Source of the DNA: Desulfurococcaceae archaeon | GTDB taxonomy: Archaea; Thermoproteota; Thermoprotei_A; Sulfolobales; Desulfurococcaceae | NCBI GenBank assembly: GCA_038816475.1 | Contig: JAWBAI010000003.1 | Span: 62,774-126,773, forward strand | DNA: 64,000 nt | Reading direction: 5' to 3' | Part shown: piece by piece, positions 907 through 16,763 of the stretch | Position numbering within the stretch: the stretch's first letter is position 1 | Layout: every line of letters starts with the position of its first letter | Translations under genes and position numbers: made by a program | Notes under the pieces: model-generated | Databases searched by the model: none | Seen by the model: only the letters and a program-made list of their open reading frames with translations | Told to the model about the DNA's origin: nothing

Positions 907-924
907 GGTGGTGAAGGAGAACCT

Positions 925-2031
925 ATGAGAGCTATTTACATAGCTCTTAAGAAAGCTATATGGGCATACGCAAGGTTTAGAGAAAAAATTTCTCCAGGCT
1001 GGGTACAGAGGAACTCGTCTAAGATTAAAGAATGGGAGCTTATGGCATATGCTTTTAGCAAGTCAAAGATAGGTGTAGTAGGAGGTATCATTGTCTTTAT
1101 AAACTTTATGATAGCGCTTGTGGGACCATTCGTATCATGGGAACCCTATTGGGAGTATAAGACCGTACATGATCTAAGCTTAATGTATCATCCCCCGTGT
1201 ATTCCACCATCCTGTAAGGAATACCCCTTGCTTGGTACTGATGAATGGGGTAGAGATATAATCGCAATGTCGCTTTATGGTTTCAGAATATCCTTTGTTA
1301 TATCCGTGGTAGTAGTGCTTTTGGGTGCACCCCTTGGAATATTGCTTGGACTAATTGCAGGTTACAAGGGTGGCATTGTAGATGAGGTTATCATGAGAAT
1401 AACCGATATATTCCTTGCATTTCCCGGTTTAGTACTCGCAATAGCATTCGCTTCTATACTACCGCAAAGAATAAGAGGAATGCTAGAAGAAACCCCTCCG
1501 CTCAGAGCGTTCTTCTCAGCACTATATGGTTTAAGGGAATTAGAGTACGGTCAGCTGGCATCTTTGTTATCTATTTGGTTTGCAATGGTGCTTGTATGGT
1601 GGCCTGCGTATGCTAGAATAGTACGTGGAAATGTTCTATCAGTTAGAGAAATGCCATTCGTGGAAGCGGCAAAGCTATCCGGTCTCTCTACCTGGAGCAT
1701 ACTCTTTAAGCACATACTACCAAACGTCTTATCACCAGTAATCGTCATGATGACGTTCGACCTTGCTACAGCAACGCTTTTCGCAGCTTCGCTTTCATTT
1801 CTGGGACTTGGTCCACAAGATCCTGTACCAGAGCTGGGTTTCATGATATCCAAGGCAGGAGCATACTTCCCCGAGAGAAGCTGGCATGTGGTAGTTTACC
1901 TAGGAACAATACTACTAATGTTGGCTTTAGGGTGGAACCTTCTCGGAGATGCTTTAAGAGATATTTTGGATCCAAGAACTAGAAGAGCCATTGAATACAA
2001 ACTAGAAGAGAAAGAAAAAAGTAGGAGGTAA
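925..2031 (+). CDS. dppC: Peptide/nickel ABC transporter permease, DppC/OppC family
   Basis: 'LGTDEWGRD', 'FVEAAKLSG', 'LGDALRDILDPR'; GGTGGTGA SD-like motif upstream. Confidence 0.93.
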   Translation: MRAIYIALKKAIWAYARFREKISPGWVQRNSSKIKEWELMAYAFSKSKIGVVGGIIVFINFMIALVGPFVSWEPYWEYKTVHDLSLMYHPPCIPPSCKEYPLLGTDEWGRDIIAMSLYGFRISFVISVVVVLLGAPLGILLGLIAGYKGGIVDEVIMRITDIFLAFPGLVLAIAFASILPQRIRGMLEETPPLRAFFSALYGLRELEYGQLASLLSIWFAMVLVWWPAYARIVRGNVLSVREMPFVEAAKLSGLSTWSILFKHILPNVLSPVIVMMTFDLATATLFAASLSFLGLGPQDPVPELGFMISKAGAYFPERSWHVVVYLGTILLMLALGWNLLGDALRDILDPRTRRAIEYKLEEKEKSRR

Positions 2032-2039
2032 CAACACTC

Positions 2040-3053
2040 ATGGAGTTCGAGACCCTGAAAATGCCGGAGGACGAAGTATTAAGAGTTGAAGATCTAGAAG
2101 TTAAATTCTACACCTATATGGGAGTCGTGCACGCCGTATCCAAGGTTTCATTTAATGTTAGAAAAGCTGAAACGATTGCTCTTGTTGGTGAAACAGGTTG
2201 TGGTAAAACTGTAACAACAAGAGCCATTACAAGACTCATTGAATCACCGGGTAGAATAGAAAATGGAAAGGTTCTCTTTAGACGTAGAGATGGTAGAGTA
2301 GTTGATCTGCTAAGAATAGATGACAAGAAATTACGTGAAATCAGAGGGAACGAGATAGCATATGTGTTTCAAGACCCCACGTCAGCTCTTGACCCGCTCT
2401 ACACTATTGGATACCATATATATGAAACCATTAAAGCACACAAACCAAATGTTACTAAGAAAAGCGCGTTAAAATACGCTATAAACTTACTAAGGCAAGT
2501 TTTAATACCAAGTCCCGAGTTGAGAATCAAGAACTATCCTCATGAAATGTCCGGTGGTATGAGACAGAGAAGTGTAATAGCTATAAGTTTATCGAACACA
2601 CCTAAGCTATTAATTGCTGATGAACCAACGACAAACCTGGATGTAACACTTCAAGCACAAATACTAAGCTTGCTTAAAAATCTCCAAGAAGAGTACAAGA
2701 TGAGTTTAATACTGATAACGCACAATCTCGGGGTAGTAGCAGAGATAGCGGATAGAGCATACGTAATGTACGCAGGTAAAATAGTCGAAGAAGGCCGCGT
2801 AGAGCAACTCTTTTACAACCCTCAACATCCTTACACAAAATTATTGCTGAGATCTGTTCCTAATCCTTTAAAGAAAATCGAGAAACTGGAGTCTATACCT
2901 GGAGTAGTACCTTCGTTGATAAACCCACCACCTGGTTGTAGATTTCATCCGCGTTGTCCCTATGCAATGGAGATATGCGGCAAGCGGGAACCACCAATGT
3001 TTAACGTAGAAGAGCAACATAGAGCAGCATGTTGGCTCTTGGATAAAAGGTGA
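2040..3053 (+). CDS. dppD: Peptide ABC transporter ATP-binding subunit, DppD
   Basis: Walker A GETGCGKT, signature MSGGMRQR, Walker B LIADEPT, C-terminal GCRFHPRC...C...C domain. Confidence 0.94.
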   Translation: MEFETLKMPEDEVLRVEDLEVKFYTYMGVVHAVSKVSFNVRKAETIALVGETGCGKTVTTRAITRLIESPGRIENGKVLFRRRDGRVVDLLRIDDKKLREIRGNEIAYVFQDPTSALDPLYTIGYHIYETIKAHKPNVTKKSALKYAINLLRQVLIPSPELRIKNYPHEMSGGMRQRSVIAISLSNTPKLLIADEPTTNLDVTLQAQILSLLKNLQEEYKMSLILITHNLGVVAEIADRAYVMYAGKIVEEGRVEQLFYNPQHPYTKLLLRSVPNPLKKIEKLESIPGVVPSLINPPPGCRFHPRCPYAMEICGKREPPMFNVEEQHRAACWLLDKR

Positions 3054-3059
3054 AAGGGC

Positions 3060-4034
3060 TTGTCAAAGGAAGTACTACTTGAGGTTATAGACTTAAAGAA
3101 GTACTTCAGAGTAAGAGGATCTTTAACAAAGAAAGTGAAAGCTGTAGATGGAGTAACGCTTAACATTAAACGTGGAGAAACACTAGGAGTAGTTGGCGAA
3201 AGTGGATGTGGGAAAACAACCCTAGGTAGACTCATCCTTAGACTAATCGATCCAACTTCGGGTAAAATACTATTCGAGGGTAGAGATGTATCAAAGGTTA
3301 AAGGTAAAGCTCTAAGGGAGTACTGGAGGAATGCTCAAATGGTATTCCAAGATCCTCATACAAGCTTGAACCCGAGAATGACGATTGCTAGCATACTTTT
3401 AGAGCCTGTTAGATATCATAAGCTAGATGTAGGGGATGAGGAAGAGTTTCTCGTTAAACAAATGGAGCTTGTAGGGCTCGGACGAGAACATCTGTATAGG
3501 TATCCTCATGAACTATCAGGTGGGCAAAAGCAACGTGTTGCGATCCTAAGAGCTATAATTACAAGACCTAAATTCATAGTACTCGATGAACCAACATCCT
3601 CACTAGATGTATCTGTTCAAGCACAGATTCTGGAGTTGTTAAAAGATCTTCAAAAGAAGTTCAACTTAACGTATCTATTCATATCACACGATATTGCAGT
3701 GGTGAAGTACATGAGTAATAGAATGGCTGTAATGTACCTCGGGAAAATAGTCGAGATAGGTCCATCTGACGTGGTTTTCGAAAACCCACATCACCCCTAC
3801 TCAAAGTTCCTACTTGCAGCAGTACCTGTACCTGACCCCGAAGTGGCTAGAAGTAAAGAAAGACTGCTTATAAAGGGAGAACCTCCATCACCTGTGAACC
3901 CACCACCTGGTTGTAGATTTCATCCGCGTTGTCCCTACGCAATGGAGATATGTAGTAAGCAGGAACCGCCTGCTATTGAAATTGGTAATAATCACGTTGT
4001 TTACTGCTGGCTTTACACTAAAAGAGGCTCATGA
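3060..4034 (+). CDS. dppF: Peptide ABC transporter ATP-binding subunit, DppF
   Basis: GESGCGKT, LSGGQKQR, IVLDEPT, C-terminal Cys-rich oligopeptide-ATPase domain. Confidence 0.94.
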   Translation: MSKEVLLEVIDLKKYFRVRGSLTKKVKAVDGVTLNIKRGETLGVVGESGCGKTTLGRLILRLIDPTSGKILFEGRDVSKVKGKALREYWRNAQMVFQDPHTSLNPRMTIASILLEPVRYHKLDVGDEEEFLVKQMELVGLGREHLYRYPHELSGGQKQRVAILRAIITRPKFIVLDEPTSSLDVSVQAQILELLKDLQKKFNLTYLFISHDIAVVKYMSNRMAVMYLGKIVEIGPSDVVFENPHHPYSKFLLAAVPVPDPEVARSKERLLIKGEPPSPVNPPPGCRFHPRCPYAMEICSKQEPPAIEIGNNHVVYCWLYTKRGS

Positions 4035-4360
4035 TATTTTCGACGCTTCCTTAGAATTCCCATGAATTCCTAATTAATTATTTAATCCTGGATTAACTGA
4101 TTATTATTTTATGTTACGACAGGGCCAACCTCCCTCCTTTATGAAGTGCTTACACTTACATGTAGCTCGCGCACCATCAAGAAACAACTAGCAATCTCAA
4201 CTGAATAAACAACAATAGAACATAGAACTTTTTACTAGTATTAATCATTGTACTTTTGACCGATTTAAATTTGTTATCAACGTACAGGAACAATTAAGGT
4301 TGTAAGGCATCAGTTATGGGTTCTTTTTAGCTTAAAAGCTGATTATTTTTAACTTTGGAT

Positions 4361-5620
4361 TCAAGCTTTTAATGCAAGGTATGCCATTACCTTGGCATCG
4401 TTAACTAAGTTGTCTATTTTGCAATACTCGTTAGGCATGTGTGCTGTTTCATCTATAGTTGACCAAACAGCAGTTGGTATACCGACTCTTCTAAATAAAG
4501 CAGCTACAGTACCACCACCAATACCTCCAATTCGCGGTTCGATACCTCTCAGTACTTTCAAAGCTTCCAATAGAACCTTGACAATAGGCGAATCTGCAGA
4601 TGTTGGTGGTGCGGCATCCGATCTCTCTAAGACCTCGTACTCGAGAACAGGGTAAATTCTCTCCTCGAACTTCTTCCTATAAACAATTCGTAGTCCCGCG
4701 AACATTCCAAGCATATCTTCTATCAGATCATCGACACTATATTCCGGTAGAACACGACAATCTATTACGACTTCGTGCTCGCTCGGGACAATATTCGGAG
4801 AACCACTGGAGTTCTTAACCATAGTAGGTTCGCAGGTCGTTGTCGGTGGATCAAACATTAAGTTTACCTTGCCATACTTTTCTTTTATTAACTTATCCAA
4901 TAATACTATGTATTCAGCCGCTATTTTATGAGCATTAAGGCCCCTGTGTGGTACGCTTGCATGTACCTGTAGTCCTTTAAATTTTAATTTAATCCATAGT
5001 ATGGATTTTTCAGCTACTTCAATGAAGTCACCATTACTAGAACCAGCATCGGGTACTAATGCTAGATCTTTTGGGTTAAACAACTCTGAATAGTTTTTAA
5101 TTAAATACTCAAGACCAAACTTAGAGCCGGCTTCTTCATCACTTACAAACGCTAAAACAAGTGTTCTTCGAGGTTTTACACCTTCTTCTAAAAGAGCCTT
5201 AGCTACGATCAACGATGCTACTAAAGCTTGCCCATTATCTTCGCTACCTCTACCGTAAACTTTTCCATTAAGAAATACCGGTTCAAATGGCTTAGTGATA
5301 GTCCAAGCAGAAACATCTCCAGGTGGTACGACATCAAGATGTGTTAGAATCCACAGCTTATCTTCAACTTCACCTTTAATTAAGGCTAATATGTTAGGTC
5401 GTACATTACCTTTAGCCCTCGGGTCTGGCACATTGATTACTTTTACATCCGTAAAGCCCCAGTCTTTTATCTCATCTAAAATGAACGTGGCTTTGTCGTA
5501 TTCACCGTCACCACCAAATGCAGGATTAACCCCTTGTCTCTTGATAATCTCCATGAGAAGTTTTACTGCGTAATCTCTCAAAAGGTCTATTCTCTCTAAA
5601 ACGCGCTTAAGCACAGACAT
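4361..5620 (-). CDS. M20 family metallohydrolase (ArgE/DapE-like)
   Basis: Metal-binding motifs THLDVVP, GRGSEDN, SDEE and C-terminal AHMPNE. Confidence 0.9.
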   Translation of the reverse strand: MSVLKRVLERIDLLRDYAVKLLMEIIKRQGVNPAFGGDGEYDKATFILDEIKDWGFTDVKVINVPDPRAKGNVRPNILALIKGEVEDKLWILTHLDVVPPGDVSAWTITKPFEPVFLNGKVYGRGSEDNGQALVASLIVAKALLEEGVKPRRTLVLAFVSDEEAGSKFGLEYLIKNYSELFNPKDLALVPDAGSSNGDFIEVAEKSILWIKLKFKGLQVHASVPHRGLNAHKIAAEYIVLLDKLIKEKYGKVNLMFDPPTTTCEPTMVKNSSGSPNIVPSEHEVVIDCRVLPEYSVDDLIEDMLGMFAGLRIVYRKKFEERIYPVLEYEVLERSDAAPPTSADSPIVKVLLEALKVLRGIEPRIGGIGGGTVAALFRRVGIPTAVWSTIDETAHMPNEYCKIDNLVNDAKVMAYLALKA

Positions 5621-5666
5621 TCTAAACGCCTAGGAATAATCTATGAGTCAGTCATGTATATATCTT

Positions 5667-6389
5667 CTAGATCATGTTAAGATTTTGCAGTCGAGGTGAT
5701 TTTATTTTACGATGTTTTAAGCTTAGTTTTAAAAGAGATTCTGCAACTTTCAATGTTACAAGTGTAGGGTCTATTACTGGAATACCTACAACTTTACTTA
5801 TAGTGTTCGCCAACCCTATAAATCCACTACACCCCAGTACAACAACATCTACCTCATGTTCCTTTACGGCTTTTTCAATTTCTTTAGTAAGTAAGCTTGT
5901 AATTCTTTCAATGTTTTTTCTTATCTCCAATATAGGTATTTCTATTCCTGATATGTAAACTACGCGTTTCTCGATACCTAGCTGAGCAACTCTGCGCTTA
6001 TACAATGTAGACCACTCTCTCCCGGCCGAAATTATGCCAATTTTATAACCCAAGAGTAACGCTATTGCTAGCGACGTTTCGCCAATACCAAAAACCGGTA
6101 TGTCTGATACTTCTCGCGAACCCTCTAACCCAGGGTCGTCAAAACAGTTTATGATAACGCCATGGAACCCTTCTTTGTCAGCCTTCACCACTTCTTTAAT
6201 AACCAGTGGCGCAACCAGCTCTTTTTCATATTCGGTCTCTATATAAGGTGGTGCTCCAGGTATGTTCCTTACCACAACCTCTACGTCAAATGAGAGAACT
6301 TGTTTAGCGTAACTTAGAGTAAGCTCATTCCATATATCCACACCTACTGGGTTTATAATAAGCAACTTCACCTTCAAGCTCATAACCAT
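5667..6389 (-). CDS. Asp/Glu/hydantoin racemase family protein (hydantoin/allantoin racemase-like)
   Basis: IINP at N-terminus, catalytic Cys pair in NCFDDPG and LGCSGF, 'PVIDP'. Confidence 0.88.
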   Translation of the reverse strand: MVMSLKVKLLIINPVGVDIWNELTLSYAKQVLSFDVEVVVRNIPGAPPYIETEYEKELVAPLVIKEVVKADKEGFHGVIINCFDDPGLEGSREVSDIPVFGIGETSLAIALLLGYKIGIISAGREWSTLYKRRVAQLGIEKRVVYISGIEIPILEIRKNIERITSLLTKEIEKAVKEHEVDVVVLGCSGFIGLANTISKVVGIPVIDPTLVTLKVAESLLKLSLKHRKIKSPRLQNLNMI

Positions 6390-6427
6390 GCGATTTGATA
6401 AACTTTCCTAACCTACATAACTCTAAA

Positions 6428-7387
6428 TTAGATGTAGAGCCAGCATGCTACAAGCCTATTTTTCACATTAACTAATAAAGGCTTTTTTTCATAGCAGATC
6501 TTAGTAGCATAGCGACATCTATGAGCTAGTTTACAACCGAGCGCTTCCGCATAAGCTTTATCCTCTTTTAACAATGAGTAATTGGTATGATAAGTTAAAC
6601 CCTTGATAGGATCAGGGAACGACGCCATTAGTGCTTGTGTATACGGATGAAGTGGTTCTTGAAAAACGGTGTCTACACTACCAACTTCCATAACGTTGCC
6701 GCGATACAATACTAGTATATTTTTAACTATGTAGCGTACAATTGATAAATCGTGTGTTACTAGAAGATATGTCATGTTAAATTTCTCACGTAACTCCTGC
6801 AGAAGATTAATTATTTGCGCCTGTATGGATACGTCTAAAGCTGATGTTGGTTCATCAAGAAGAATGAGCTCGGGGTTTACAGCTAGAGCTCGAGCTAATG
6901 CAACACGTTGAGCCTGTCCTCCACTTAGGTTTGAAGGATACTGGTTCATGGTAGATAAAGGTAATCCTACTAATTCTAATAATTCACTTACTTTTTTCCT
7001 GATATCTTTTTCTTCGAGTTTTTGATGTTTTCTTATAGGTTCAGCCACGATGTCGAATACCTTCATCCGAGGATTAAGTGATTGGAATGGGTTCTGAAAA
7101 ACAGCCTGAACACTCCTACGGTACCAGCTCTCTTCTTTTTTAGTCAACAAGAAAATATCCTTATTCTTAAAGAAAATTCTGCCCCGTGTGGGTTTTTCCA
7201 ACTTAAGTATAGTCCTTAATATTGTTGTTTTACCCGAGCCTGTTTCGCCGACTAAGGCAAGACCATCATAACTATTTACCGCAAATGACACCCCATTCAC
7301 GGCTTTTACGTATCCAATAACACGTCCGAAGAGACCTTTTTTAATAGGAAAATACACATGAAGGTCTTCAACTCTTAAGATCTCCAT
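6428..7387 (-). CDS. Peptide ABC transporter ATP-binding subunit (OppF-like)
   Basis: GETGSGKT, LSGGQAQR, LLDEPT; start set to ATG 7387 (MEILRVEDL), which overlaps the upstream stop as TAATG. Confidence 0.9.
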   Translation of the reverse strand: MEILRVEDLHVYFPIKKGLFGRVIGYVKAVNGVSFAVNSYDGLALVGETGSGKTTILRTILKLEKPTRGRIFFKNKDIFLLTKKEESWYRRSVQAVFQNPFQSLNPRMKVFDIVAEPIRKHQKLEEKDIRKKVSELLELVGLPLSTMNQYPSNLSGGQAQRVALARALAVNPELILLDEPTSALDVSIQAQIINLLQELREKFNMTYLLVTHDLSIVRYIVKNILVLYRGNVMEVGSVDTVFQEPLHPYTQALMASFPDPIKGLTYHTNYSLLKEDKAYAEALGCKLAHRCRYATKICYEKKPLLVNVKNRLVACWLYI

Positions 7388-8358
7388 TATGACCCCTGAT
7401 ACAAATGACATAGAACCATTCTTTTGTTGAAAGCTACACGTGGAGGTTTTTGTATTGCGCACACAGGTTTGTTACTATCGCATCTACTATGAAATGGACA
7501 GCCCTCGAAGTCTTTTCTAAGATCTGGAGGAGATCCTTGTATAGGTATTAGTGAACCATCAGTTGCACATAGCTTTGGCATAGCTCTTAGCAGTCCCTTT
7601 GTGTATGGATGTAATGGACTTTTTAAGACTTCTTCGATGAAGCCTTCCTCTACAATCGTTCCAGCGTACATTACTGCAACTTTATCACACATATGCGCTG
7701 CAATACCAAAATTATGTGTTATCATTATTAGGGTTAAATCATATTCTTTTTTAAGCGCTTTGATTAGGTTTAGTATCTCAGCTTGAGTAATTACATCTAG
7801 ATTCGTCGTCGGCTCATCTGCTATAAGAACTTTAGGTTTCTTAGCTAATGCTAATGCTATTGAAGCTCTCTGTAACATTCCACCTGATAGTTCGTGTGGG
7901 TACGAATTTAAAACACGGTCTATTTCGATAAGTCTAGCACTTTTAAGAGCTTCCTTAGATATTTCAATCGCTTCCTTTGGGGTTACTTTCAACACATCAA
8001 TTAGCACGTCTATGAACTGCTGTTTTATAGTGAAAAGTGGATTGAAAGCGGTGGCCGGATCTTGAAATACTACTCCAATTTCTCTTCTTATCTTAGATAA
8101 TATGCTCGGATTATTATTTCGTAGTACGTCAATGCCTTCGTATATTACAGAACCCCGCTCTACCACGGCATTTTTAGGTAAAATTAAAGCTAGTGCTTGT
8201 ACTAGTGTTGATTTACCTGATCCAGACTCGCCTACAATGCAAATAGCCTCACCACGCTCAATACGTAGATTCACACCTCTGAGAGCCTTGATCACCGCTC
8301 CAAAGGTGTAGTAATTAATTACGAGATCTTGTATTGCTATGAAGGCATTATTCGCCAT
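7387..8358 (-). CDS. Peptide ABC transporter ATP-binding subunit (OppD-like)
   Basis: GESGSGKS, LSGGMLQR, IADEPT, GCPFHSRC. Confidence 0.92.
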   Translation of the reverse strand: MANNAFIAIQDLVINYYTFGAVIKALRGVNLRIERGEAICIVGESGSGKSTLVQALALILPKNAVVERGSVIYEGIDVLRNNNPSILSKIRREIGVVFQDPATAFNPLFTIKQQFIDVLIDVLKVTPKEAIEISKEALKSARLIEIDRVLNSYPHELSGGMLQRASIALALAKKPKVLIADEPTTNLDVITQAEILNLIKALKKEYDLTLIMITHNFGIAAHMCDKVAVMYAGTIVEEGFIEEVLKSPLHPYTKGLLRAMPKLCATDGSLIPIQGSPPDLRKDFEGCPFHSRCDSNKPVCAIQKPPRVAFNKRMVLCHLYQGS

Positions 8359-9236
8359 GAACGTCGCCTCTTTATGATCATGAGATTTCTAACTCTCGGA
8401 TCCATGTATTCTTTTAGCGCATCACCAAGCAAGTTAAAGCCAAGCACGACTGTTAGTATAGCTAAACCGGGGAACAACGAAATCCACCATGCTATATTTA
8501 TATACTGCCATCCTTCACTAACAAGTAAACCCCATTCGGGGATTGGTGGAGGAACACCTACACCTAGAAAGCTCAGAGCCGACGCTTCTAGTATAGCTGA
8601 CCCTATATCCAATGTCGCCTGAGTAACCACGGGGGTAATCACATTCGGAAAAATATGCTTGAACATTATGACTACAGGACTCACACCTATTATTTTAGCT
8701 GAGTCTACGTATGCAAGAGATTTTACCGATGTTGTTTGAATGTAAACTAACCTAGTATACCACGGCCACCAGGATAGTGCTAATGCAATAATCGTGTTTA
8801 AAACGCCTCTTCCAAGTATAGATGCAAACGCTATTGCTAGAAGCAAGGGTGGAAAAGCTAAGAACATGTCTGCAATTCTCATTACTACGGTACCGACTTT
8901 GCCACCGAAGTAGCCTGCTACAAGACCTGTTGGTACACCTATTAGTAGTGCAATTACAACTACAGATACACCGATCACCAAGGAAAACCTAGTACCTAAA
9001 ATTACTCGGTTAAGCAGATCTCTGCCTAGAGCGTCTGTTCCTAGAGGGTGCTCTAGCGAAGGAGGATTAAACTTTTTTTCCGGGTGGTAAGCTATCCCCC
9101 ATGCATCTTCGGGCTTCGTTACAATATAGGGAGCTAAAACTCCTACTATGATAAAGATAGCAACTATACTAAAACCCACTAAATAAATCCTTCTCAGTAG
9201 AATAAACCTTAAGAAATCCTTGAACCACGCGTTCAT
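8337..9236 (-). CDS. Peptide ABC transporter permease (OppC-like)
   Basis: HPLGTDALGRD, PEWG, LGDAL...DPR. Confidence 0.92.
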   Translation of the reverse strand: MNAWFKDFLRFILLRRIYLVGFSIVAIFIIVGVLAPYIVTKPEDAWGIAYHPEKKFNPPSLEHPLGTDALGRDLLNRVILGTRFSLVIGVSVVVIALLIGVPTGLVAGYFGGKVGTVVMRIADMFLAFPPLLLAIAFASILGRGVLNTIIALALSWWPWYTRLVYIQTTSVKSLAYVDSAKIIGVSPVVIMFKHIFPNVITPVVTQATLDIGSAILEASALSFLGVGVPPPIPEWGLLVSEGWQYINIAWWISLFPGLAILTVVLGFNLLGDALKEYMDPRVRNLMIIKRRRSWRIMPS

Positions 9237-10255
9237 AGTTTCACTCTAGGATCTATCCAGGCATGAACAATGTCTACAACGAGGTTTATCGCGGAATAAA
9301 ACAAAGCTACAAATACTATCGAACCAAGCACAGCCGGGTAATCATGGCTTAAAAGAGACATACCTGCGTAATAACCTACACCGGGCCACACGAACACGAG
9401 TTCGACCATGAAGGCACCTATAATGGTGTAACCAAAACTCAAACCTAGTGAAGCTATTACTGGTGAAATAACGTTCTTTAAAACGTATTTGTAAATGAGT
9501 TTACTTCTACTTATTCCGTTAGCTTCTAAAAATCTTACGAAGTTTTCATTTAAAACTTCAATTGCAATGGATCTAACCATTCTAATCGTGAGACTTAACG
9601 GATAAAGAGATACTGTGATTGCGGGTAAAGCTATTCTTCTAAGCACATCAACGAACACTATCATATTGCCTTGCAATAGCGAATCTAACAGGTAGAAACC
9701 TGTTATTGGTCTAAAACCTGTCGCTAGTACTAAAACAGTATCTATACGCTTACCGGCTGGCAGTATTTTTAGCCATATTCCAAAAACTAACTGTAAAATT
9801 AATGCGGTCCAAAAAACAGGCATGGAAGCTCCTACTATAGCAATGGTTCGGATTATGTCATCCTTTATGCTTCCAATTCTTAAAGCCGAGTAAAAGCCTA
9901 AGGGAATGCCTAAAACCATTGCTATAGTAAACCCTACTACGACCAATTCTAGAGTTGCAGGTAAAGCCGATAGTATGTCCTGAAGAACTTGTTGTCGCGT
10001 TCTCCAGGATACACCCCAGTTACCTTTAAAAAAGTTTTCTAAATAGTAAATTAGCTGAATATGTATTGGTTCATCTAAATGGAGCTCTCGTCTAGCTCTC
10101 TCGATAGCTTCTAGGGGGGCATGAGGTCCTGCCCATAAAATCTCTGGTCGTGCAGGTATGACACGAGTTAGAATAAACGTGATAATGAGGACTCCAAATA
10201 CAACGAGTATAAGTGAAAAAAGTCTTTTCGTAATATATGAATATGTAACCGGCAT
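9233..10255 (-). CDS. Peptide ABC transporter permease (OppB-like)
   Basis: Multi-TM, 'VELVFVWPGVG', 'DIVHAWIDPRVK'. Confidence 0.92.
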   Translation of the reverse strand: MPVTYSYITKRLFSLILVVFGVLIITFILTRVIPARPEILWAGPHAPLEAIERARRELHLDEPIHIQLIYYLENFFKGNWGVSWRTRQQVLQDILSALPATLELVVVGFTIAMVLGIPLGFYSALRIGSIKDDIIRTIAIVGASMPVFWTALILQLVFGIWLKILPAGKRIDTVLVLATGFRPITGFYLLDSLLQGNMIVFVDVLRRIALPAITVSLYPLSLTIRMVRSIAIEVLNENFVRFLEANGISRSKLIYKYVLKNVISPVIASLGLSFGYTIIGAFMVELVFVWPGVGYYAGMSLLSHDYPAVLGSIVFVALFYSAINLVVDIVHAWIDPRVKL

Positions 10256-10270
10256 ACCTTAGTCAGCCAT

Positions 10271-11911
10271 TTACTCCACGACAAGTTTTTGAGCAAATAT
10301 AACGGTTGGATAGCAAGGATTAATAGCTTCATCAAGATTCTTAATACGAGTAGTAGCTACTCTAATATCGATCATATCCCATAGAGGTATGGCGGGAACA
10401 TCCATGTAAAGTATATACTGTGCCTTGTAGTATAGCTCAAGAGCTTTCGCGGGATTCAAGCCTTCGAGTCTATAAGCATCGATTATTATTGCATCAAAGG
10501 TCTGGTTTTCGTAGTAGCATAAATTAAAAGCCTTACTTTCACTATGAAACATGTTGTATAGGTATGTTATCGGTGAAAGAACATCGGGCCACCAGTAGAA
10601 TATGAACAAGTCTTGTACTTCCTCAGGCGTTTCCCATCCCTTTTGAGCTAAAGCCCACTGTTCTTCCCAGGACATAGGCTTTATTTCGACATTTATACCA
10701 ATCTTAGCAAGCGATGCCTTTATTATCTCAGCTGTTCGAGCTTCATAGATGTCACCAGCCGTATACACTAAGGTTAGTGTTCTTGGAATGCCATCCGGAT
10801 ATCCCGCTTCAGCTAGTAACCTCTTGGCAAGATCTAAATCGTAGGTATACGTTAAATTATCGAAGTGACCCCATAAACCGTATGGTATGGGACCACTAGC
10901 TACCCTAGCTAGACCCCCACGTGCTAATTTAACTATGTCTTCATATGGTATGGCATGCGCGATTGCTCTTCTCACGCGAGTGTCATTTAGCGGTGGCTTC
11001 CTGGTGTTTATCAACATTATCAAGTTCTGAAAGCTGGGTTTACGAACAACAACAAAATTCGGATCTCTTTCGAACAACTCAAGATCCTCGATTGGAACGT
11101 ACTGCGCAATATGTATCTCTCCGGCTCTCAGCATTCTACTCTGAGTTGCAGCATCTTTGATAACTTTAATAATGAATACGTCGGGTGCTTTATCAATAGA
11201 GGATCTCCATGGGTAATCAGGCTCTCTCCAACCCCACCACTCTTCCCATTTTTCAAGCACGACTTCAAATTCAGGGTCCCATTTAATTAGCTTATATGGT
11301 CCGCTGCCACACGCATTACCTCTATTAAACCACTCTGCAACTTTAGGATCAACAGAGTCGGTCGCATTGGCGTATTTTACCACGTTGGGGCAGAAGATGT
11401 ATGCAGAATAAGGAGATGCGGCAATTTTTAGTAATGGTGCGGGGTATTTGAGATAGAATCTAATAGTGTATTCGTCTATAACCTCAATTCTCTCCACAGG
11501 GTCCCATATATATGCTGCACCACCACCAAGTAATATTGTTCTGTTGATACTAAAAGCTACAGCTTCAGCATTAACAGGGGATCCATCGTGAAACTTGGCA
11601 CCCTTCCTGATATAGAAAGTCCAAACGGTACCCTCAGGATCGCTCTCCCACCTCTCAGCTAATCCTGGTATGAACTGATCTTTGAACGGATCATACCATA
11701 CTAATGTTTCATATACTAGCGGTAGCCACATTACTGAATTAGAGAACTCTGTACTGGGATCAGCTGTTGTCATTTCAGATAGAGAAGCGTAGATAACAGC
11801 TTTCTTTGGTAATGGTGAAGGCGCTCGAAGCCATATCATAAAGCCAGCTACTATACTAATTATCACAACTACTGCAATAACAGCTAGTAACAAACGCTTA
11901 AGTACGGTCAA
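10271..11911 (-). CDS. ABC transporter substrate-binding protein, family 5 (OppA/DppA-like), N-terminal membrane anchor
   Basis: Hydrophobic N-terminus, 'LVYETLV', 'PGLAERW', 'FHDGSP', 'GSGPYKL', 'RVRRAIAHAI'. Confidence 0.92.
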   Translation of the reverse strand: MTVLKRLLLAVIAVVVIISIVAGFMIWLRAPSPLPKKAVIYASLSEMTTADPSTEFSNSVMWLPLVYETLVWYDPFKDQFIPGLAERWESDPEGTVWTFYIRKGAKFHDGSPVNAEAVAFSINRTILLGGGAAYIWDPVERIEVIDEYTIRFYLKYPAPLLKIAASPYSAYIFCPNVVKYANATDSVDPKVAEWFNRGNACGSGPYKLIKWDPEFEVVLEKWEEWWGWREPDYPWRSSIDKAPDVFIIKVIKDAATQSRMLRAGEIHIAQYVPIEDLELFERDPNFVVVRKPSFQNLIMLINTRKPPLNDTRVRRAIAHAIPYEDIVKLARGGLARVASGPIPYGLWGHFDNLTYTYDLDLAKRLLAEAGYPDGIPRTLTLVYTAGDIYEARTAEIIKASLAKIGINVEIKPMSWEEQWALAQKGWETPEEVQDLFIFYWWPDVLSPITYLYNMFHSESKAFNLCYYENQTFDAIIIDAYRLEGLNPAKALELYYKAQYILYMDVPAIPLWDMIDIRVATTRIKNLDEAINPCYPTVIFAQKLVVE

Positions 11912-12071
11912 CGTGTGCCCTAAGTATGAGACTCTACTAAGGGTATTTAAATGTCATAAGAAAAGCATTAATAAAAGCATCAATAATGGAAGTTTCGAAA
12001 ACGATTAACAATGTAAAATCAAGCACCTCATTCACCAGATTAGTGCTATCATACGGTTTCATAACAATGTT

Positions 12072-13118
12072 TCATCTCATGCCTGTTCTTAAGAGCATGG
12101 CTAATTCCATGAGGTCTCCATGCACGTACTCGCCGTTTTCTATTATTAATTCACCATCGCATTCTACTGTTGGATTTAAGCAAACACCATCAGTATGAGA
12201 AGATGCAGGTCCTAGCTTTCCCCTAAATGTTGGAGACTGCGATCCAATACCCCATTCAACAACACCCCACACTCTTTCATCCTCCAGTATGTTACCAGAG
12301 AGCTTTGCTCCCGGGTTACAGCCATAGGATAAGTGAGCTATGTTTAGCATTTTCTCATCATTAAGCGACTTGATCCACTTTTCAAAGAGTCTTGCTTCAT
12401 AACCGCCTTCGATTTTTTTAATTTTACCTTCAATTACATGTAGCTTTATAGGAGTTTTTAAGATTCCAAGCTCTTCAGGAGGCCACACAGAACCATCAAA
12501 CACTATTACCCCATTTATACTATCTTCTACGGGCGCCCAATCCACCTGACCGAACAACATGTATTCACCAGGTCCATCTACTTCACCTTCCACGAGAACA
12601 GGTCGAGCTGGATCATTTTCGAATTCCACGTTCATACCAGCTGGACTTGTTATTCGCATTTTCTTGCATTTTTTTGTTATGCTTGATAACTTTCTCTGAA
12701 AGATGTACATGGCGTCCAAGTTCACTCTACCAATTGTTCTAACCATCATGTCACTGTACATACCCACAAGACACATATACTTTACCTTACCTGTTTCAAC
12801 AGCTTTCCAGTAGGGTGTTGAGTAGAGTAGCCAATTTCTGTTGTATTCTATCCAGACATCAGCTTCTCTTAGTATAGCTGTGAGCGTTTTTACTGGTAGA
12901 TACTTATCAGCAGCTATACCAACACCTATAGGTGTTTGGTGGAGCACTATAACTGGCTTAGCACCAACTATTGCTGTTGCTTCTGCCGTTGCTACAGCTA
13001 CATTCCAATCACCAGCTGTATCTATCGTTATTACAACTTCGTCTCCAGCAGACACTTTAAGTACGTCCTTCACTAATTTGTACGCAGCAGATAAAAGTTC
13101 GTAGTCTAGATACCTCAT
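12072..13118 (-). CDS. M29/aminopeptidase T-related metalloprotein (NicX-like / leucyl aminopeptidase-annotated family)
   Basis: 'ITSPAGM', 'GVIVFDGS', 'AHLSYGCNPGA', 'ILEDERVWG', 'SHTDG' match the thermophilic metalloprotease-like fold; true activity uncertain. Confidence 0.75.
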   Translation of the reverse strand: MRYLDYELLSAAYKLVKDVLKVSAGDEVVITIDTAGDWNVAVATAEATAIVGAKPVIVLHQTPIGVGIAADKYLPVKTLTAILREADVWIEYNRNWLLYSTPYWKAVETGKVKYMCLVGMYSDMMVRTIGRVNLDAMYIFQRKLSSITKKCKKMRITSPAGMNVEFENDPARPVLVEGEVDGPGEYMLFGQVDWAPVEDSINGVIVFDGSVWPPEELGILKTPIKLHVIEGKIKKIEGGYEARLFEKWIKSLNDEKMLNIAHLSYGCNPGAKLSGNILEDERVWGVVEWGIGSQSPTFRGKLGPASSHTDGVCLNPTVECDGELIIENGEYVHGDLMELAMLLRTGMR

Positions 13119-13157
13119 AGGATCGCCCCTATTTAATTAACGCGTTCTCCTTCTTTT

Positions 13158-13826
13158 CTAAGTATAGTGTTTTACGAGTTTTAATAAACTTACTATTAAA
13201 AGCGCACTTGCCTTAACCGGGTCTATTACTGGAACCTTAATTTCGTCCTCTAACTCTTCAGCCATACCACCAAAACCTGTACATCCAAGTACAAAAATAG
13301 CTCTACTTTCTTTAGAGAGAATGATCTTCATGGTATTTAGCAATAGCTCAGCTACTCTGTTTCTATCCTTATCAATATCTGTAACGCTAATAGGAATACT
13401 AACTATGTCGACTAAGTATTCTCTCAAATTGAGTCTATAAATTTTGTTCCACATCAGATCAAGGGCCTCTTTCATTAAGCTTACAGTTAAGACATATATT
13501 GGGCGTCCATATAATTTAGCTAATGTTAAAGAGGATTCACCAGCACCTAGCACTATACCTTTAGTTTCACGTCTTAACTCCTCTACCCCCGGATCTAGGA
13601 AGCAGTTAATGATTACACCATCATACTTGCTAACTACGGTTCTACCGACTTCTACAACTATGCGAGAAGCTTCTAGAAAAGCTTCGACTGTTTCAACAGC
13701 TGAAGGCCCTCTAGGGAGAGATATGACATCCACTTCCATGTATGAAGGTAAAAATCTCTTGTATAATGCTTTATCGGCTTCGTTCCACATGGAGTGCCCT
13801 ACAGGGTTTATAACAAGTATTCTCAT
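13158..13826 (-). CDS. Asp/Glu/hydantoin racemase family protein, second paralog
   Basis: VINP, NCFLDPG, LGCTGF, PVIDP. Confidence 0.87.
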   Translation of the reverse strand: MRILVINPVGHSMWNEADKALYKRFLPSYMEVDVISLPRGPSAVETVEAFLEASRIVVEVGRTVVSKYDGVIINCFLDPGVEELRRETKGIVLGAGESSLTLAKLYGRPIYVLTVSLMKEALDLMWNKIYRLNLREYLVDIVSIPISVTDIDKDRNRVAELLLNTMKIILSKESRAIFVLGCTGFGGMAEELEDEIKVPVIDPVKASALLIVSLLKLVKHYT

Positions 13827-14935
13827 TACGAAGGAACACCGAGTTCTTTCACTAGTTCTTCAACAGGTACATAGTCGTAATCAAACCCAAAACGCCTTGG
13901 TCCAAATAATTCAAGACCACGCGGAGTTCTCCAAACACTATGCGCTTTTGCCGCTATTCCATTAACAATCATACCTTCCTTGAGATCCGCGTTTGTTATG
14001 GGTGTGCCGTCGTCTGTTACTAGTATGAACAGATCTGGCGGCATTACGAGCGGTTTATCATCAAGCCATACCATGATATGTTCATTCATGATCCAGCTTC
14101 TAAGAACTCTATCTCTGTACACATTAATACCTCTTATAACAGCCTCGCCTTTTAAGAAACCCGCTTCATCACGCCATTTATAGCTTTCAACAATACCTTT
14201 AAATACAACCCAGCCTTCAAGTACTCTAGCAATTGTAGCTACAGGGTCACGTTTCCTAGCTCTAGCTCTTAACACCTTTGATCCGAGTCTAAAACACTTT
14301 GAGAGCGTAGCACTAATAACTGCCTTCTTAGCTTCCGTTTTCTTCATTGGTGTATCAACTACTGCTACGTATCTACCACTAAGTACTGAAAGATACCTGA
14401 CTATTGCCTCATAATCATCTATATCAGCATATTCCTTTACTAAGACTACATTGCCCGTTTCTGAGACTATTACTGAAGGATACATTGGAATCCCAAATAT
14501 GTGAACAGTACATTGATGCAACTCTGGAGCAGCTCTGCCAAGAAGATCTCCATCTACTGCTGGTATTCCTAGTTTAGCTGCAATGCTTAAAGCTACAGGG
14601 GTGTTAGCACCTCCAAGCTCGCTAGCTACAACTCCTGCTACTTTTACACCTAACTCTTTCTCCATAACTTCAAATGCTCTATTGATAGCGTTGGGTACCT
14701 TAATACTTTTCTTAGGCTTTAAACCCGGTGCTATTGATCCCACGTAGTATGGAACAACAATTACTCCATCATCTGGTAGCTCATCAAGGCTAACAATATT
14801 GATTACTTTGCCCTCTTCTAAAACACTCTTAAGTAGCAAGAGACCTTCTTTAGGATCACCTCCACCACCAGTGCCAAGGATTGTTGCTCCTAGAACAAGC
14901 TTCTCGGCATCATCAATACTGGTTATGGACCACAA
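13826..14935 (-). CDS. DUF917 family protein (S-methyl-thiohydantoin desulfurase-like fold)
   Basis: Signature LGTGGGG, ELGGAN, DGDLLGRAAPEL, NEH and PD motifs. Confidence 0.85.
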   Translation of the reverse strand: MWSITSIDDAEKLVLGATILGTGGGGDPKEGLLLLKSVLEEGKVINIVSLDELPDDGVIVVPYYVGSIAPGLKPKKSIKVPNAINRAFEVMEKELGVKVAGVVASELGGANTPVALSIAAKLGIPAVDGDLLGRAAPELHQCTVHIFGIPMYPSVIVSETGNVVLVKEYADIDDYEAIVRYLSVLSGRYVAVVDTPMKKTEAKKAVISATLSKCFRLGSKVLRARARKRDPVATIARVLEGWVVFKGIVESYKWRDEAGFLKGEAVIRGINVYRDRVLRSWIMNEHIMVWLDDKPLVMPPDLFILVTDDGTPITNADLKEGMIVNGIAAKAHSVWRTPRGLELFGPRRFGFDYDYVPVEELVKELGVPS

Positions 14936-15575
14936 AATTCACACCCATGTAAGAGTGGTTCAAGGTCTTTAAAATTTTGTAGAGGTGTACTTATTGAATT
15001 TACCATCACGTTAAACCATGCTAGGAAGGTAAAGGACTTAAGCGTACGCTAATGCTGATGTTCTGATGTGTTTACATCATGGAGATTTCTGAGAGCCGGT
15101 ATTTAACTGTTATCAACTTTCGCAGGGATCATACGAGATCTCAGCAAAGTTCCTAGAACACTAGCACGACTAGCACGGCAAAGAAGAATATACAATATCA
15201 AGGTCGGCTTCGGCATTTACGATTGTAACGTACTTAGGATAATGGCTATTAGCTATGTTCAATAAGTCCTCGTATCTTGTCTCGCTCGTTCTTAGTCAGA
15301 ACAACCCCTGGGCAAACACTACTGTTTTTCTCGAAGTTTTCATCATGAACTCCAAGGCAACCTACACATAGTTTTGAATACCGAAAACCCTAAGCTCAAG
15401 GAGAAACCGGAGATAGATGCTGGGGGATCAAAGCAAGACTACGAAGTCGTCATCACTCTACATGAATCACTATCAAGGCTGAACTTCTAACTGGGAGAGA
15501 TACGAAGACTCATAGTTTTTGATGATTGATTTTTAATATTTAGAGGACTCTAATATTTGAAGAAAAGGATAAGTC

Positions 15576-15970
15576 ATGCGGTTTAAACTATCATCTTACT
15601 TGTTCGTTGCCAGTGTTCTCACCCCCTTGCTGATGGTCACGTTTATCGGTGTTCTAGCTACTCGACCAGATCTACTACAAGAACTATCGCGGCTGGACGT
15701 TGTTGTGCTTGAACTCACGCTACCCTCTGATCTGAGGGAAAAGCTTACATCTACGTCTCGCCGATGTACCCTGAGGGTCTTAGGCAGGTGAGCAGAACGG
15801 TTGTAGACCCGGAGAACATGCCCGTGGAGAGGGCGATCCTCAGCCTCAGGGACCTCAGGGAAGCCTGGAGGAGGGAGTGGAAGAGAAGGGGGACATTCGC
15901 CGAGCCCCTTATTGTAATAACAGGGGTTCACGAGATCCAGCAAGGTTTTTGCACAGAGGGTCGAGTCTAG
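15576..15970 (+). pseudogene. Probable frameshifted, truncated fragment of a secreted/membrane protein gene
   Basis: ORF 15576-15791 begins with a signal-peptide-like segment; protein-like sequence continues in another frame (EGKAYIYVSPMYPEG...) and stops just before the tRNA 3' end. Family not recognised. Confidence 0.35.
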
Positions 15971-16163: not shown

Positions 16164-16763
16164 TTATGTGGTTTTGAACAAGTACTCCTTCGTAGTATAA
16201 CCCTCCTTTGTGAATACGAGTACGTCTACTCCATCACCGGAGAGAACATCTCTTTCTATAACGGTTTTTATGGCTTCTACGGCTATTTTCTCTGCTTCTG
16301 TGAGGTCAAGGTCTTCTTTGTACCTTGGTTCTATGTAGCCTAAGGCCAGCTGAGCCCCTGAACCGACAGCCGCGTACCTCTCTTCCAGTAGGCTTCCAAC
16401 AGGGTCTAGTACGAAGAGTGTTGGACCCTCTTCATCGTATCCTCCAACTATAACCTCAGTGAACATCGGGAAGAGCTTATAGCTGTAGAGTATTACTGAG
16501 AGTATCTTGGCTAAACTACGTGTTTTAAGCTCTTTTCCTTGTTGTAGCTCGTAGTGTTTTGCTTCCAGCTTAAGAATCTTGGTTAAGTAACCAATATCAC
16601 CTACTAATCCCGCAAAGGCAACTCCAGCTCTACTAGTAATTGGATACACCTTTCTTGCTTGTTTACTAAGTACGAAACCTTCATAAGCAACTCTTTTCTC
16701 ACTAGCTAATACCACACCATTTCTTGTTCTTATACCTATGGCTGTTCCTGGAATCGTTACCAA
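16164..16763 (-). CDS. psmB: Proteasome beta subunit (probably non-catalytic beta1 type)
   Basis: 'GVVLASEKR', 'AGLVGD', 'GSG', 'RDVLSGDG'; N-terminus PGTAIG lacks the usual TTT. Confidence 0.92.
   Translation of the reverse strand: MVTIPGTAIGIRTRNGVVLASEKRVAYEGFVLSKQARKVYPITSRAGVAFAGLVGDIGYLTKILKLEAKHYELQQGKELKTRSLAKILSVILYSYKLFPMFTEVIVGGYDEEGPTLFVLDPVGSLLEERYAAVGSGAQLALGYIEPRYKEDLDLTEAEKIAVEAIKTVIERDVLSGDGVDVLVFTKEGYTTKEYLFKTT

Follow-up and report, generated by a model that had tools for sequence, protein, structure and literature searches.

A ten-gene locus of a Desulfurococcaceae archaeon with a possible role in the uptake and breakdown of cyclic dipeptides

We analysed a stretch of 64,000 nucleotides (hereafter the window) from the assembly GCA_038816475.1 of a Desulfurococcaceae archaeon, in which ten co-oriented genes occupy positions 4361-14935, all on the minus strand. 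The genes encode a DUF917 protein, two racemases of the hydantoin-racemase type (here RacA and RacB), a metalloprotein related to NicX and to the M29 aminopeptidases (here the NicX-like protein), the five parts of an ATP-binding cassette (ABC) importer and an M20 metallohydrolase (Table 1). In the order of transcription, the DUF917 gene is followed by those for RacA, the NicX-like protein, the substrate-binding protein, the two permeases, the two ATPases, RacB and the M20 enzyme. The coordinates were checked against the open reading frames (ORFs), and the products were assigned to families by Pfam and NCBIfam profile scans; coordinates, strand and family calls agree with an earlier description of the cluster made from the letters alone (the sequence-only reading). 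That description had also stated that no hydantoinase is encoded here, and we indeed detected neither a cyclic amidohydrolase nor HyuA/HyuB among the ten products with Pfam or NCBIfam. The host assembly amounts to 1.15 Mb in 18 contigs and is 92% complete. In this genome, the DUF917 gene of the cluster is the sole DUF917 gene, the genes for RacA and RacB are the sole two genes of the racemase type, and neither Hydantoinase_A nor Hydantoinase_B gave any match, while amidohydrolase-type hydantoinases were not searched genome-wide. Below we describe the gene set and weigh the possibility that it serves the uptake and catabolism of cyclic dipeptides.

Table 1. Genes of the cluster, in the order of transcription, and promoter-like octamers (positions of the window).
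Feature	Position	Strand	Product size	Basis or remark
TATA-like octamer TTTTAAAG	14967..14974	-		32-39 nt upstream of the DUF917 start; found by eye
DUF917/S-Me-THD-like protein, first gene	13826..14935	-	369 aa	Pfam PF06032 and PF20906
RacA, hydantoin-racemase-type two-Cys racemase	13158..13826	-	222 aa	Pfam PF01177 Asp_Glu_race, E 9.2e-28
NicX-like M29-fold metalloprotein (P0001)	12072..13118	-	348 aa	match to NicX 7cn3
TATA-like octamer TTTAAATA	11944..11951	-		33-40 nt upstream of the binding-protein start, in the 160-nt gap; found by eye
Substrate-binding protein, family 5 (Dpp/Gsi type)	10271..11911	-	546 aa	SBP_bac_5, E 1.4e-93
ABC permease, DppB-type	9233..10255	-		Pfam BPD_transp_1 and BPD_transp_1_N
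ABC permease, DppC-type	8337..9236	-		Pfam BPD_transp_1; 4-nt overlap with the preceding gene
ABC ATPase, DppD/OppD-type	7387..8358	-		Pfam ABC_tran and oligo_HPY
ABC ATPase, DppF/OppF-type	6428..7462	-		ABC_tran and oligo_HPY; start probably ATG 7387
RacB, hydantoin-racemase-type two-Cys racemase	5667..6389	-	240 aa	Pfam PF01177 Asp_Glu_race, E 2.6e-40
M20 metallohydrolase, ArgE/DapE type	4361..5620	-	419 aa	NCBIfam PRK13983

The spacings between consecutive genes, again in the order of transcription, are -1, 39, 160, 15, -4, -22, -76, 38 and 46 nt, the first of them reflecting a RacA start that overlaps the DUF917 stop by 1 nt. An alternative ATG at 7387 for the second ATPase turns the -76 overlap into a 1-nt TAATG stop-start overlap; the shorter protein (319 aa) is likelier because of this junction and because the family alignments start at residues 26-28. 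The octamer TTTTAAAG is a possible main promoter and TTTAAATA a possible internal one; the spacings together with the two octamers suggest that the ten genes may be transcribed as one or two units. The sequence-only reading had also called the cluster AT-richer than the 16-32 kb region, and this is true as far as it goes (40.2% against 43.6% GC), but the difference is small and unspecific, since the whole window has 42.8%, positions 1-4360 have 40.6% and the 32-38 kb region has only 38.5%. As other parts of the window are equally low in GC, we gave the AT-richness no weight, and horizontal transfer, considered on this ground, was rejected because the 3-point gap is matched elsewhere in the window.

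The gene set recurs widely among archaea. A scan of species-representative genomes recovered 58 related loci, 57 of them with a clear NicX-like gene. They are recorded under Desulfurococcales, Ignisphaera, Pyrodictiaceae, Acidilobaceae, Vulcanisaeta, Aigarchaeota/Caldarchaeales, Methanodesulfokora (Korarchaeota), Thermococci and Thermoplasmata, and homologues 61-63% identical to the NicX-like protein are present in the cultured Thermococcus barophilus, Pyrococcus sp. NA2 and Caldisphaera lagunensis DSM 15908. Where at least 2.5 kb was available on one side (51 loci), DUF917 lay within 3 kb in 39, a racemase gene in 37 and both in 35. Where at least 8 kb was available on one side (39 loci), DUF917 was found in 35, the binding protein with both permeases in 31, two racemases in 28 and M20 in 12, the last being undercounted as many loci end at the transporter. 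These gene counts rest on tblastn matches of at least 100 residues at an E-value of 1e-5 and may include paralogues. Clustering of the 669 ORFs from the 58 loci yielded no further family in more than five loci, and thus the ten genes appear to be the whole recurrent set. Such recurrence across archaeal phyla argues that the gene set is not a chance neighbourhood, and it rejects the refuting condition set in the sequence-only reading, that the combination is not conserved elsewhere. One locus of a complete 1.32-Mb genome of the same order (L117 on G034:C1, ~5040-6705) carries a 62% identical DUF917 gene beside a racemase gene whose alignment is split in two (residues 2-107 and 132-199); neither a NicX-like gene nor a matching importer was found in the 17 kb examined, and the locus looks like the remnant of a decayed module.

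The first gene encodes a two-domain protein with confident matches to S-Me-THD_N (E 2.8e-47) and S-Me-THD_C (E 4.5e-54). Its scores against the NCBIfam equivalogs for thiohydantoin desulfurases, NF058529 and NF058532, are 69 and 75 bits, against cut-offs of 440 and 450; judging from these scores, the protein is a member of the wider DUF917 family only and not one of the named desulfurases. The predicted structure is confident (pLDDT 91.2), and the sole solved relative in both sequence and fold searches is 2o3i, an uncharacterised protein. Beyond 2o3i the fold searches gave no functional lead: the next Foldseek match has an E-value of 0.03, and VIA-align, with a Z of 37 for 2o3i, found next only partial matches to the C-terminal domain with Z of at most 5.8. 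E106, D128, R134, N284, E285 and D301 are invariant down to paralogues of 25-39% identity, and a Gly-rich loop at 21-26 is nearly invariant across the paralogues. We propose that DUF917 is a hydrolase acting on a ring. A literature search for PF06032 found only PMC11055893, nothing was found on thiohydantoin desulfurase, and thiourocanate or thiohydantoin appeared only in chemistry papers among the matches listed.

The NicX-like protein had no match in the local Pfam copy even at an E-value of 10, the M29 family PF02073 included. The model PF26233, named NicX in Pfam 38.1, was not in the copy used, and the family was therefore assigned through the precomputed annotation of homologues: a 92% identical homologue is annotated with PF26233, as are 120 of 120 homologues among the matches listed. 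The protein matches NicX (7cn3) with an E-value of 1.6e-7 in phmmer and 1.8e-17 with a profile, and Foldseek with its predicted model (pLDDT 95.1) also placed NicX first (TM 0.75, E 3.4e-27, 20% identity), followed by the M29 enzymes PepS, AmpS and AmpT (TM 0.64-0.68) and then by CgnB/CgnE (E ~1e-8). In hhalign, the NicX-like family aligned with six archaeal M29 aminopeptidases, which themselves match PF02073 at 1e-101, over 314 columns with a probability of 97.3%. The label 'NicX/M29-like' of the sequence-only reading is therefore right, being upheld by the sequence and fold match to NicX, by PF26233 in the homologues and by the profile-profile relation to M29.

The putative metal site appears to depart from both relatives. 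The invariant M29 positions Glu/Glu/His/His/Asp, which we take to be the ligands of two metals, read Gln191/His262/Glu288/His308/Asp310 in the NicX-like protein; relatives of 61-69% identity have the same Gln/His/Glu/His/Asp pattern, and the Asp-Glu-Lys motif of M29 appears as Asp-Glu-Arg. His308, Asp310 and Glu281 are invariant in the alignment with the paralogues. The changed ligand set with the loss of the second-metal Glu suggests that the protein may hold one metal (His/Glu/His/Asp) rather than two. Short M29-like paralogues (323-333 aa, ~30% identical) from DUF917/DUF1177/AroM/CDO modules of other loci keep the full Glu/Glu/His/His/Asp set (L023:4987-5964, L024:9924-10925 and L077:14034-15005), and sister modules would thus contain two predicted active-site types of one fold. 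As for NicX, its iron ligands are presumably His265, Ser302, His318 and Asp320. His262 aligns with NicX His265, and the HMMER alignments end at residue 282; Glu288, His308 and Asp310 are placed only through the M29 alignment, with Glu standing where NicX would have Ser. The protein hence looks like a derivative of M29 that differs from the M29 peptidases and probably also from NicX. Nic genes were found neither in the cluster nor among its recurrent neighbours. Some of the host lineages are known to be strict anaerobes; for this reason, and in view of the changed ligands, we read the protein as a probable hydrolase and consider a dioxygenase role unlikely.

Both racemases have hydantoin racemases as their best solved relatives, with allantoin racemase and OpaE among the others. 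RacA matches 2eq5 (8.8e-14), 3qvj (9.7e-13) and OpaE (9qbx, 5.3e-10), and RacB matches 3qvj (2e-22), the allantoin racemase 5lfd (3.1e-21) and OpaE (2.6e-13); glutamate racemase models of NCBIfam gave the window racemases 30 bits against a cut-off of 147. The Cys pairs of RacA and RacB fall at the same two alignment positions at which 3qvk, a Cys-to-Ser variant, departs from 3qvj. In a tree of 75 racemases from the related loci, the RacA clade (41 members, support 0.996) contains all 31 genes located between the DUF917 and NicX-like genes, and the RacB clade (34 members, support 0.88) contains all 21 genes on the transporter/M20 side. Cys75 is present in 41 and Cys182 in 40 of the 41 RacA-clade proteins, and Cys82 and Cys187 are each present in all 34 of the RacB clade. 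From the tree and alignments, RacA and RacB are evidently two old, separately kept lineages with fixed gene positions and a full, presumably catalytic, Cys pair. Two racemase lineages that both keep the two Cys residues would fit a substrate with two stereocentres. OpaE, a member of the same superfamily, epimerises a cyclic peptide derivative according to the accessible part of its description.

The importer is a complete Dpp/Opp-type system, composed of a family-5 binding protein, two permeases and two ATPases with the oligo_HPY tail. The binding protein has a hydrophobic N-terminal anchor and is of the extracellular type. Its nearest solved relatives are 5u4o, HbpA (6ofq), AapF, DppA, YliB and AgaA, which take dipeptide-sized ligands, and its best NCBIfam model is the glutathione binder GsiB (E 9e-41, far below the cut-off). 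As all NCBIfam equivalog scores were below the cut-offs, we do not name a substrate for the importer. In E. coli DppA, we take Arg355 to hold the C-terminal carboxylate of the peptide and Asp408 to bind its free amino group; the Arg355 position is Thr in all 32 binding-protein orthologues, in a low-identity alignment that makes this comparison weak. The M20 enzyme scored 520 bits with PRK13983 (cut-off 333) and 239 bits with TIGR01910, and matched DapE (2e-20) and the carboxypeptidase Sso-CP2 (1.5e-13) in the PDB. Among the 58 related loci, 16 carry a relative with 40% identity or more; the one in L019 adjoins a NicX-like paralogue. The M20 enzyme is proposed to be the dipeptidase or deacylase of the last step.

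A clue to the substrate came from genes beside some relatives of the NicX-like gene. According to the accessible part of PMC11055893, PF19585 is CDOB, which pairs with the nitroreductase-family CDOA to form cyclodipeptide oxidase (CDO), and the substrates named for the studied CDOs are cyclic dipeptides only. The same part of that paper reports that 88% of 274 CDO clusters are without a cyclodipeptide synthase, gives the role of such clusters as unknown, finds them enriched in hydantoin racemases, DUF917, AroM, ABC dipeptide and OPT transporters and peptidases, and reads DUF917 as a hydantoinase. The window cluster contains several of these partner families, namely the hydantoin racemase, DUF917, the ABC dipeptide transporter and peptidases. 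Moreover, NicX-like genes of 62-68% identity are directly followed by CDOA and CDOB in L050, L058, L098, L099 and L103, and by CDOA only in L055 and L061, whose records end there. L050 otherwise has the gene set of the window, minus the M20 gene.

Paralogous modules extend this picture. In them, DUF917 and an M29-superfamily gene occur with AroM, DUF1177, OPT oligopeptide transporters, NCS1 permeases, an M24 prolidase-type enzyme, gamma-glutamyltranspeptidase and an AsnC regulator, and repeatedly with a nitroreductase-family gene followed by a PF19585 gene. Other archaeal CDO pairs adjoin an M19 dipeptidase, a formamidase-family amidase with TldD/PmbA, an NCS1 permease or an Ntn-type hydrolase, which are also degradative settings. 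In L104:8559-10480, for instance, an M19 dipeptidase gene and a CDOA/CDOB pair are divergent neighbours; the M19 family includes dehydropeptidases, and an enzyme of this kind would fit the cleavage of dehydro-dipeptides formed after CDO action. In the Thermococci locus L077 (10066-10545), an AsnC/Lrp-type gene, the sole regulator seen adjoining any of these modules, lies between the orthologous module and a second module with DUF917, DUF1177, AroM, M29-like, OPT and CDO genes. In L045 (2125-6398) and L052, a DUF917 paralogue of 33% identity is enclosed by an NCS1 permease gene and a gene that has Hydantoinase_A but not Hydantoinase_B. This group lies ~2.6 kb upstream of a NicX-like gene of 68% identity and suggests that the ATP-using half of a hydantoinase/oxoprolinase can be a partner of DUF917. 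Our literature searches found only an unrelated paper on DUF1177, and PMC11760959 makes no mention of hydantoin, archaea, 'catabol-', aminopeptidase or racemase.

On these grounds we tentatively favour, at somewhat less than an even chance, the interpretation that the locus is a self-contained module by which a peptide-eating archaeon would take up and catabolise cyclic dipeptides (2,5-diketopiperazines). The substrates of CDO, an importer of dipeptide size, two epimerase lineages, the ring chemistry of NicX and thermophilic hosts living on peptides all point in this direction. NicX, the nearest characterised relative of the NicX-like protein, acts on a six-membered 2,5-dioxygenated N-heterocycle according to the title of its entry, and the shape of this substrate may be likened to that of a diketopiperazine. 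Heating of peptides readily yields cyclic dipeptides, which are chemically very stable compounds. In the proposed pathway, the Dpp-type binding protein and the ABC importer would bring in the ring compound, and RacA and RacB would epimerise its two alpha-carbons, so that D-containing stereoisomers are funnelled to a hydrolysable form. DUF917 would then open the ring by hydrolysis, and the NicX-like protein, as a putative single-metal derivative of M29, would at once cleave the freed dipeptide and pull the unfavourable ring opening forward, leaving the remaining dipeptides or blocked products to be hydrolysed by the M20 enzyme. It is nearly as likely that the roles of DUF917 and the NicX-like protein are swapped. 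The general proposal of the sequence-only reading, that cyclic or racemised amino-acid derivatives are imported and degraded, is consistent with all of our findings; of the various substrates it listed, it is the cyclic dipeptides that have gained support, from the CDO neighbours, the OPT transporters and the peptidases.

Several observations weigh against diketopiperazines as the substrate. CDOB had no match in the window genome, as it had none in the same search of 14 control genomes, and no CDOA-like gene lies in or near the window cluster. Of the 47 scanned loci with 500 bp or more of downstream sequence, only three have CDOA within 600 bp. Among 121 genomes of the order, 19 gave a CDOB match, and of 18 CDO loci from those genomes five have a NicX-like gene, four DUF917, three AroM and three DUF1177; the link to CDO thus rests on a minority of loci, and the archaeal CDOs are themselves uncharacterised. 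The only activities named for DUF917, in NCBIfam, concern thiohydantoins, the racemases have hydantoin and allantoin racemases as solved relatives, and several parallel modules use NCS1 permeases, a family for cytosine, purines and allantoin; these three points speak for five-membered ureide rings. Plain peptides would equally suit M29-type and M20 enzymes, and the position of DppA Asp408 is Asp in 13 of the 32 binding-protein orthologues, that of the window included, although the low identity of the alignment makes this point a weak one.

The first alternative to be weighed is a hydantoin pathway free of hydantoinase, in which 5-substituted hydantoins or ureides would be imported, racemised by RacA and RacB, opened by DUF917 to N-carbamoyl amino acids and decarbamoylated by the NicX-like protein, the M20 enzyme or both. 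The closest solved relatives of the racemases and the weak match of DUF917 to the thiohydantoin desulfurase models speak for such a pathway, as do the DUF917 paralogue between an NCS1 permease and a Hydantoinase_A-only gene in L045 and L052, the NCS1 permeases present also in L020, L024 and L068, and the view of DUF917 as a hydantoinase taken in the accessible part of PMC11055893. Nevertheless, the importer belongs to the size class of dipeptides and glutathione and is not a permease for small rings, and DUF917 falls far under both desulfurase cut-offs. The M20 family includes carbamoylases, which would suit this pathway, but the enzyme of the window is of the ArgE/DapE type, with no carbamoylase model among the best 25 of its 53 NCBIfam matches. 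The additional genes of the sister modules (cyclodipeptide oxidase, OPT peptide transporters and peptidases) also fit it poorly, and it is not obvious to us where hydantoins would come from in hot springs. We therefore regard this pathway as rather improbable.

A second alternative, to which we give a smaller chance, is an ordinary operon for peptide use, in which a Dpp importer takes up linear di- or tripeptides, perhaps with D-residues, the M29-like and M20 proteins act as peptidases, the racemases work on freed amino acids and DUF917 is an accessory. Every part of the transporter is of the Dpp/Opp type, M29 and M20 are peptidase families, the Asp by which DppA would bind the amino terminus is kept in the binding protein, and a second Opp-type system lies next door. 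On the other hand, such an operon would not be expected to keep DUF917 and two racemase lineages so strictly linked to the importer across phyla, the NicX-like protein is without the second-metal Glu of canonical M29 aminopeptidases, and the racemases group with the hydantoin type and not with the Asp/Glu racemases. More doubtful again is the salvage of other heat-damaged products of dipeptide size (succinimide/isoaspartyl, pyroglutamyl or gamma-glutamyl compounds), in which the racemases would reset D-centres and DUF917 would be an imidase or a lactamase. The glutathione binder as the best, albeit below-cut-off, NCBIfam model of the binding protein would agree with this, as would the gamma-glutamyltranspeptidase in the module of L068, the hot-spring thermophiles among which the hosts are found, and the acidified alpha-proton that Cys-pair racemases probably need and that imides offer. 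Nevertheless, the set includes no isoaspartyl dipeptidase, pyroglutamyl peptidase or 5-oxoprolinase family, and nothing ties cyclodipeptide oxidase to such substrates. Very improbable, finally, is a role in making or tailoring a secondary metabolite derived from a peptide, for which the fold likeness to the crocagin proteins CgnB/CgnE, the resemblance of the racemases to OpaE and a possibility raised in the accessible part of PMC11055893 could be adduced, but which is at odds with a binding-protein-dependent importer, with the lack of a cyclodipeptide synthase or non-ribosomal peptide synthetase among the ten products or the recurrent neighbours, and with small genomes (1.15 Mb here).

If we return to the catabolism of cyclic dipeptides, it is attractive to speculate further, though this bolder proposal is a possible rather than a probable one, that DUF917 and the NicX-like protein would be the first genetically defined enzyme system for opening 2,5-diketopiperazine rings, that with two epimerases and an importer it would allow hyperthermophilic archaea to feed on cyclic dipeptides made by heat, and that NicX would descend from such a ring-binding hydrolase. 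Cyclic dipeptides are widespread signals and scaffolds of natural products, and our literature search found no named gene family for their hydrolysis. Were this module to carry out that hydrolysis, a function would be gained for DUF917, for the archaeal NicX-like proteins and for the AroM and hydantoin-racemase paralogues, the many synthase-free CDO clusters would be explained, and biocatalysis would gain heat-stable enzymes for ring opening and epimerisation. If the substrate is a hydantoin instead, the pathway would still be one without a classical hydantoinase.

Regarding the genomic context, the nearest named relatives of the window are Desulfurococcus and metagenome-assembled genomes of Desulfurococcaceae. 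Hot-spring metagenomes hold near-identical DNA: eleven DNA runs, one of which is possibly the source sample, contain at least 72% of the sampled words; no RNA run was listed among the sequencing runs that hold the sampled words of the window. Positions 1-4034 of the window (plus strand) carry a separate Opp/Dpp-type ABC system with two permeases and two ATPases, convergent on the cluster. Its family-5 binding protein of 722 aa is encoded just upstream of the window (L097:10360-12528), after housekeeping genes for tRNA ligases, RtcB and a tRNA intron endonuclease. On the right side lie an ORF of 115 aa (15596-15943, minus strand) and then a proteasome beta gene (16164-16763); the ORF has no Pfam or NCBIfam match and is not one of the genes that recur beside the cluster in other loci.

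Among known systems, the synthase-free CDO clusters resemble the locus in their partner families, and relatives of the window NicX-like gene lie upstream of CDOA/CDOB, whereas the window cluster and its genome are without the CDOA/CDOB pair. That DUF917 and racemase-type genes are associated with CDO clusters has already been published (PMC11055893); in its accessible part, that paper proposes purine or hydantoin metabolism or biosynthesis, not the catabolism of cyclic dipeptides, and does not single out NicX/M29-like or M20 genes. Compared with the literature that we found, and apart from the NicX/M29-like genes that the supplement of PMC11055893 may already depict, the new elements are the CDO-free ten-gene form, the constant NicX/M29-like partner with its apparently altered metal site, the two fixed racemase lineages, the M20 partner and the proposed catabolism of cyclic dipeptides. 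OpaE shares its superfamily with RacA and RacB and, as far as the accessible description goes, exemplifies a fold able to epimerise a residue within a cyclic peptide scaffold; nevertheless, it is distant, biosynthetic and near-unidirectional, and 3qvj is closer to both racemases, as is 2eq5 to RacA.

The NicX-like protein shares with NicX (7cn3) and with the M29 enzymes PepS, AmpS and AmpT the fold, the His-x-Asp pair and the Asp-Glu-Arg/Lys motif, but differs from them in its 20% identity to NicX, in having Gln/His/Glu/His/Asp in place of the Glu/Glu/His/His/Asp of M29 and in the lack of a Pfam M29 match. In a similar manner, the DUF917 protein aligns over its full length with the named members of its two-domain family, the thiohydantoin and S-methyl-thiohydantoin desulfurases, but falls far under the cut-offs of both, and no partner genes of the ergothioneine pathway were found in the Pfam scan. 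Bacterial hyu clusters combine a permease, a hydantoin racemase, a hydantoinase and an L-carbamoylase, and the locus follows the same logic of a transporter, a Cys-pair racemase, a ring opener and an M20-family hydrolase. Unlike the hyu clusters, however, it has a Dpp-type ABC importer, two racemase lineages and no hydantoinase among its ten products, and in the place of the hydantoinase stand DUF917 and the NicX-like protein.

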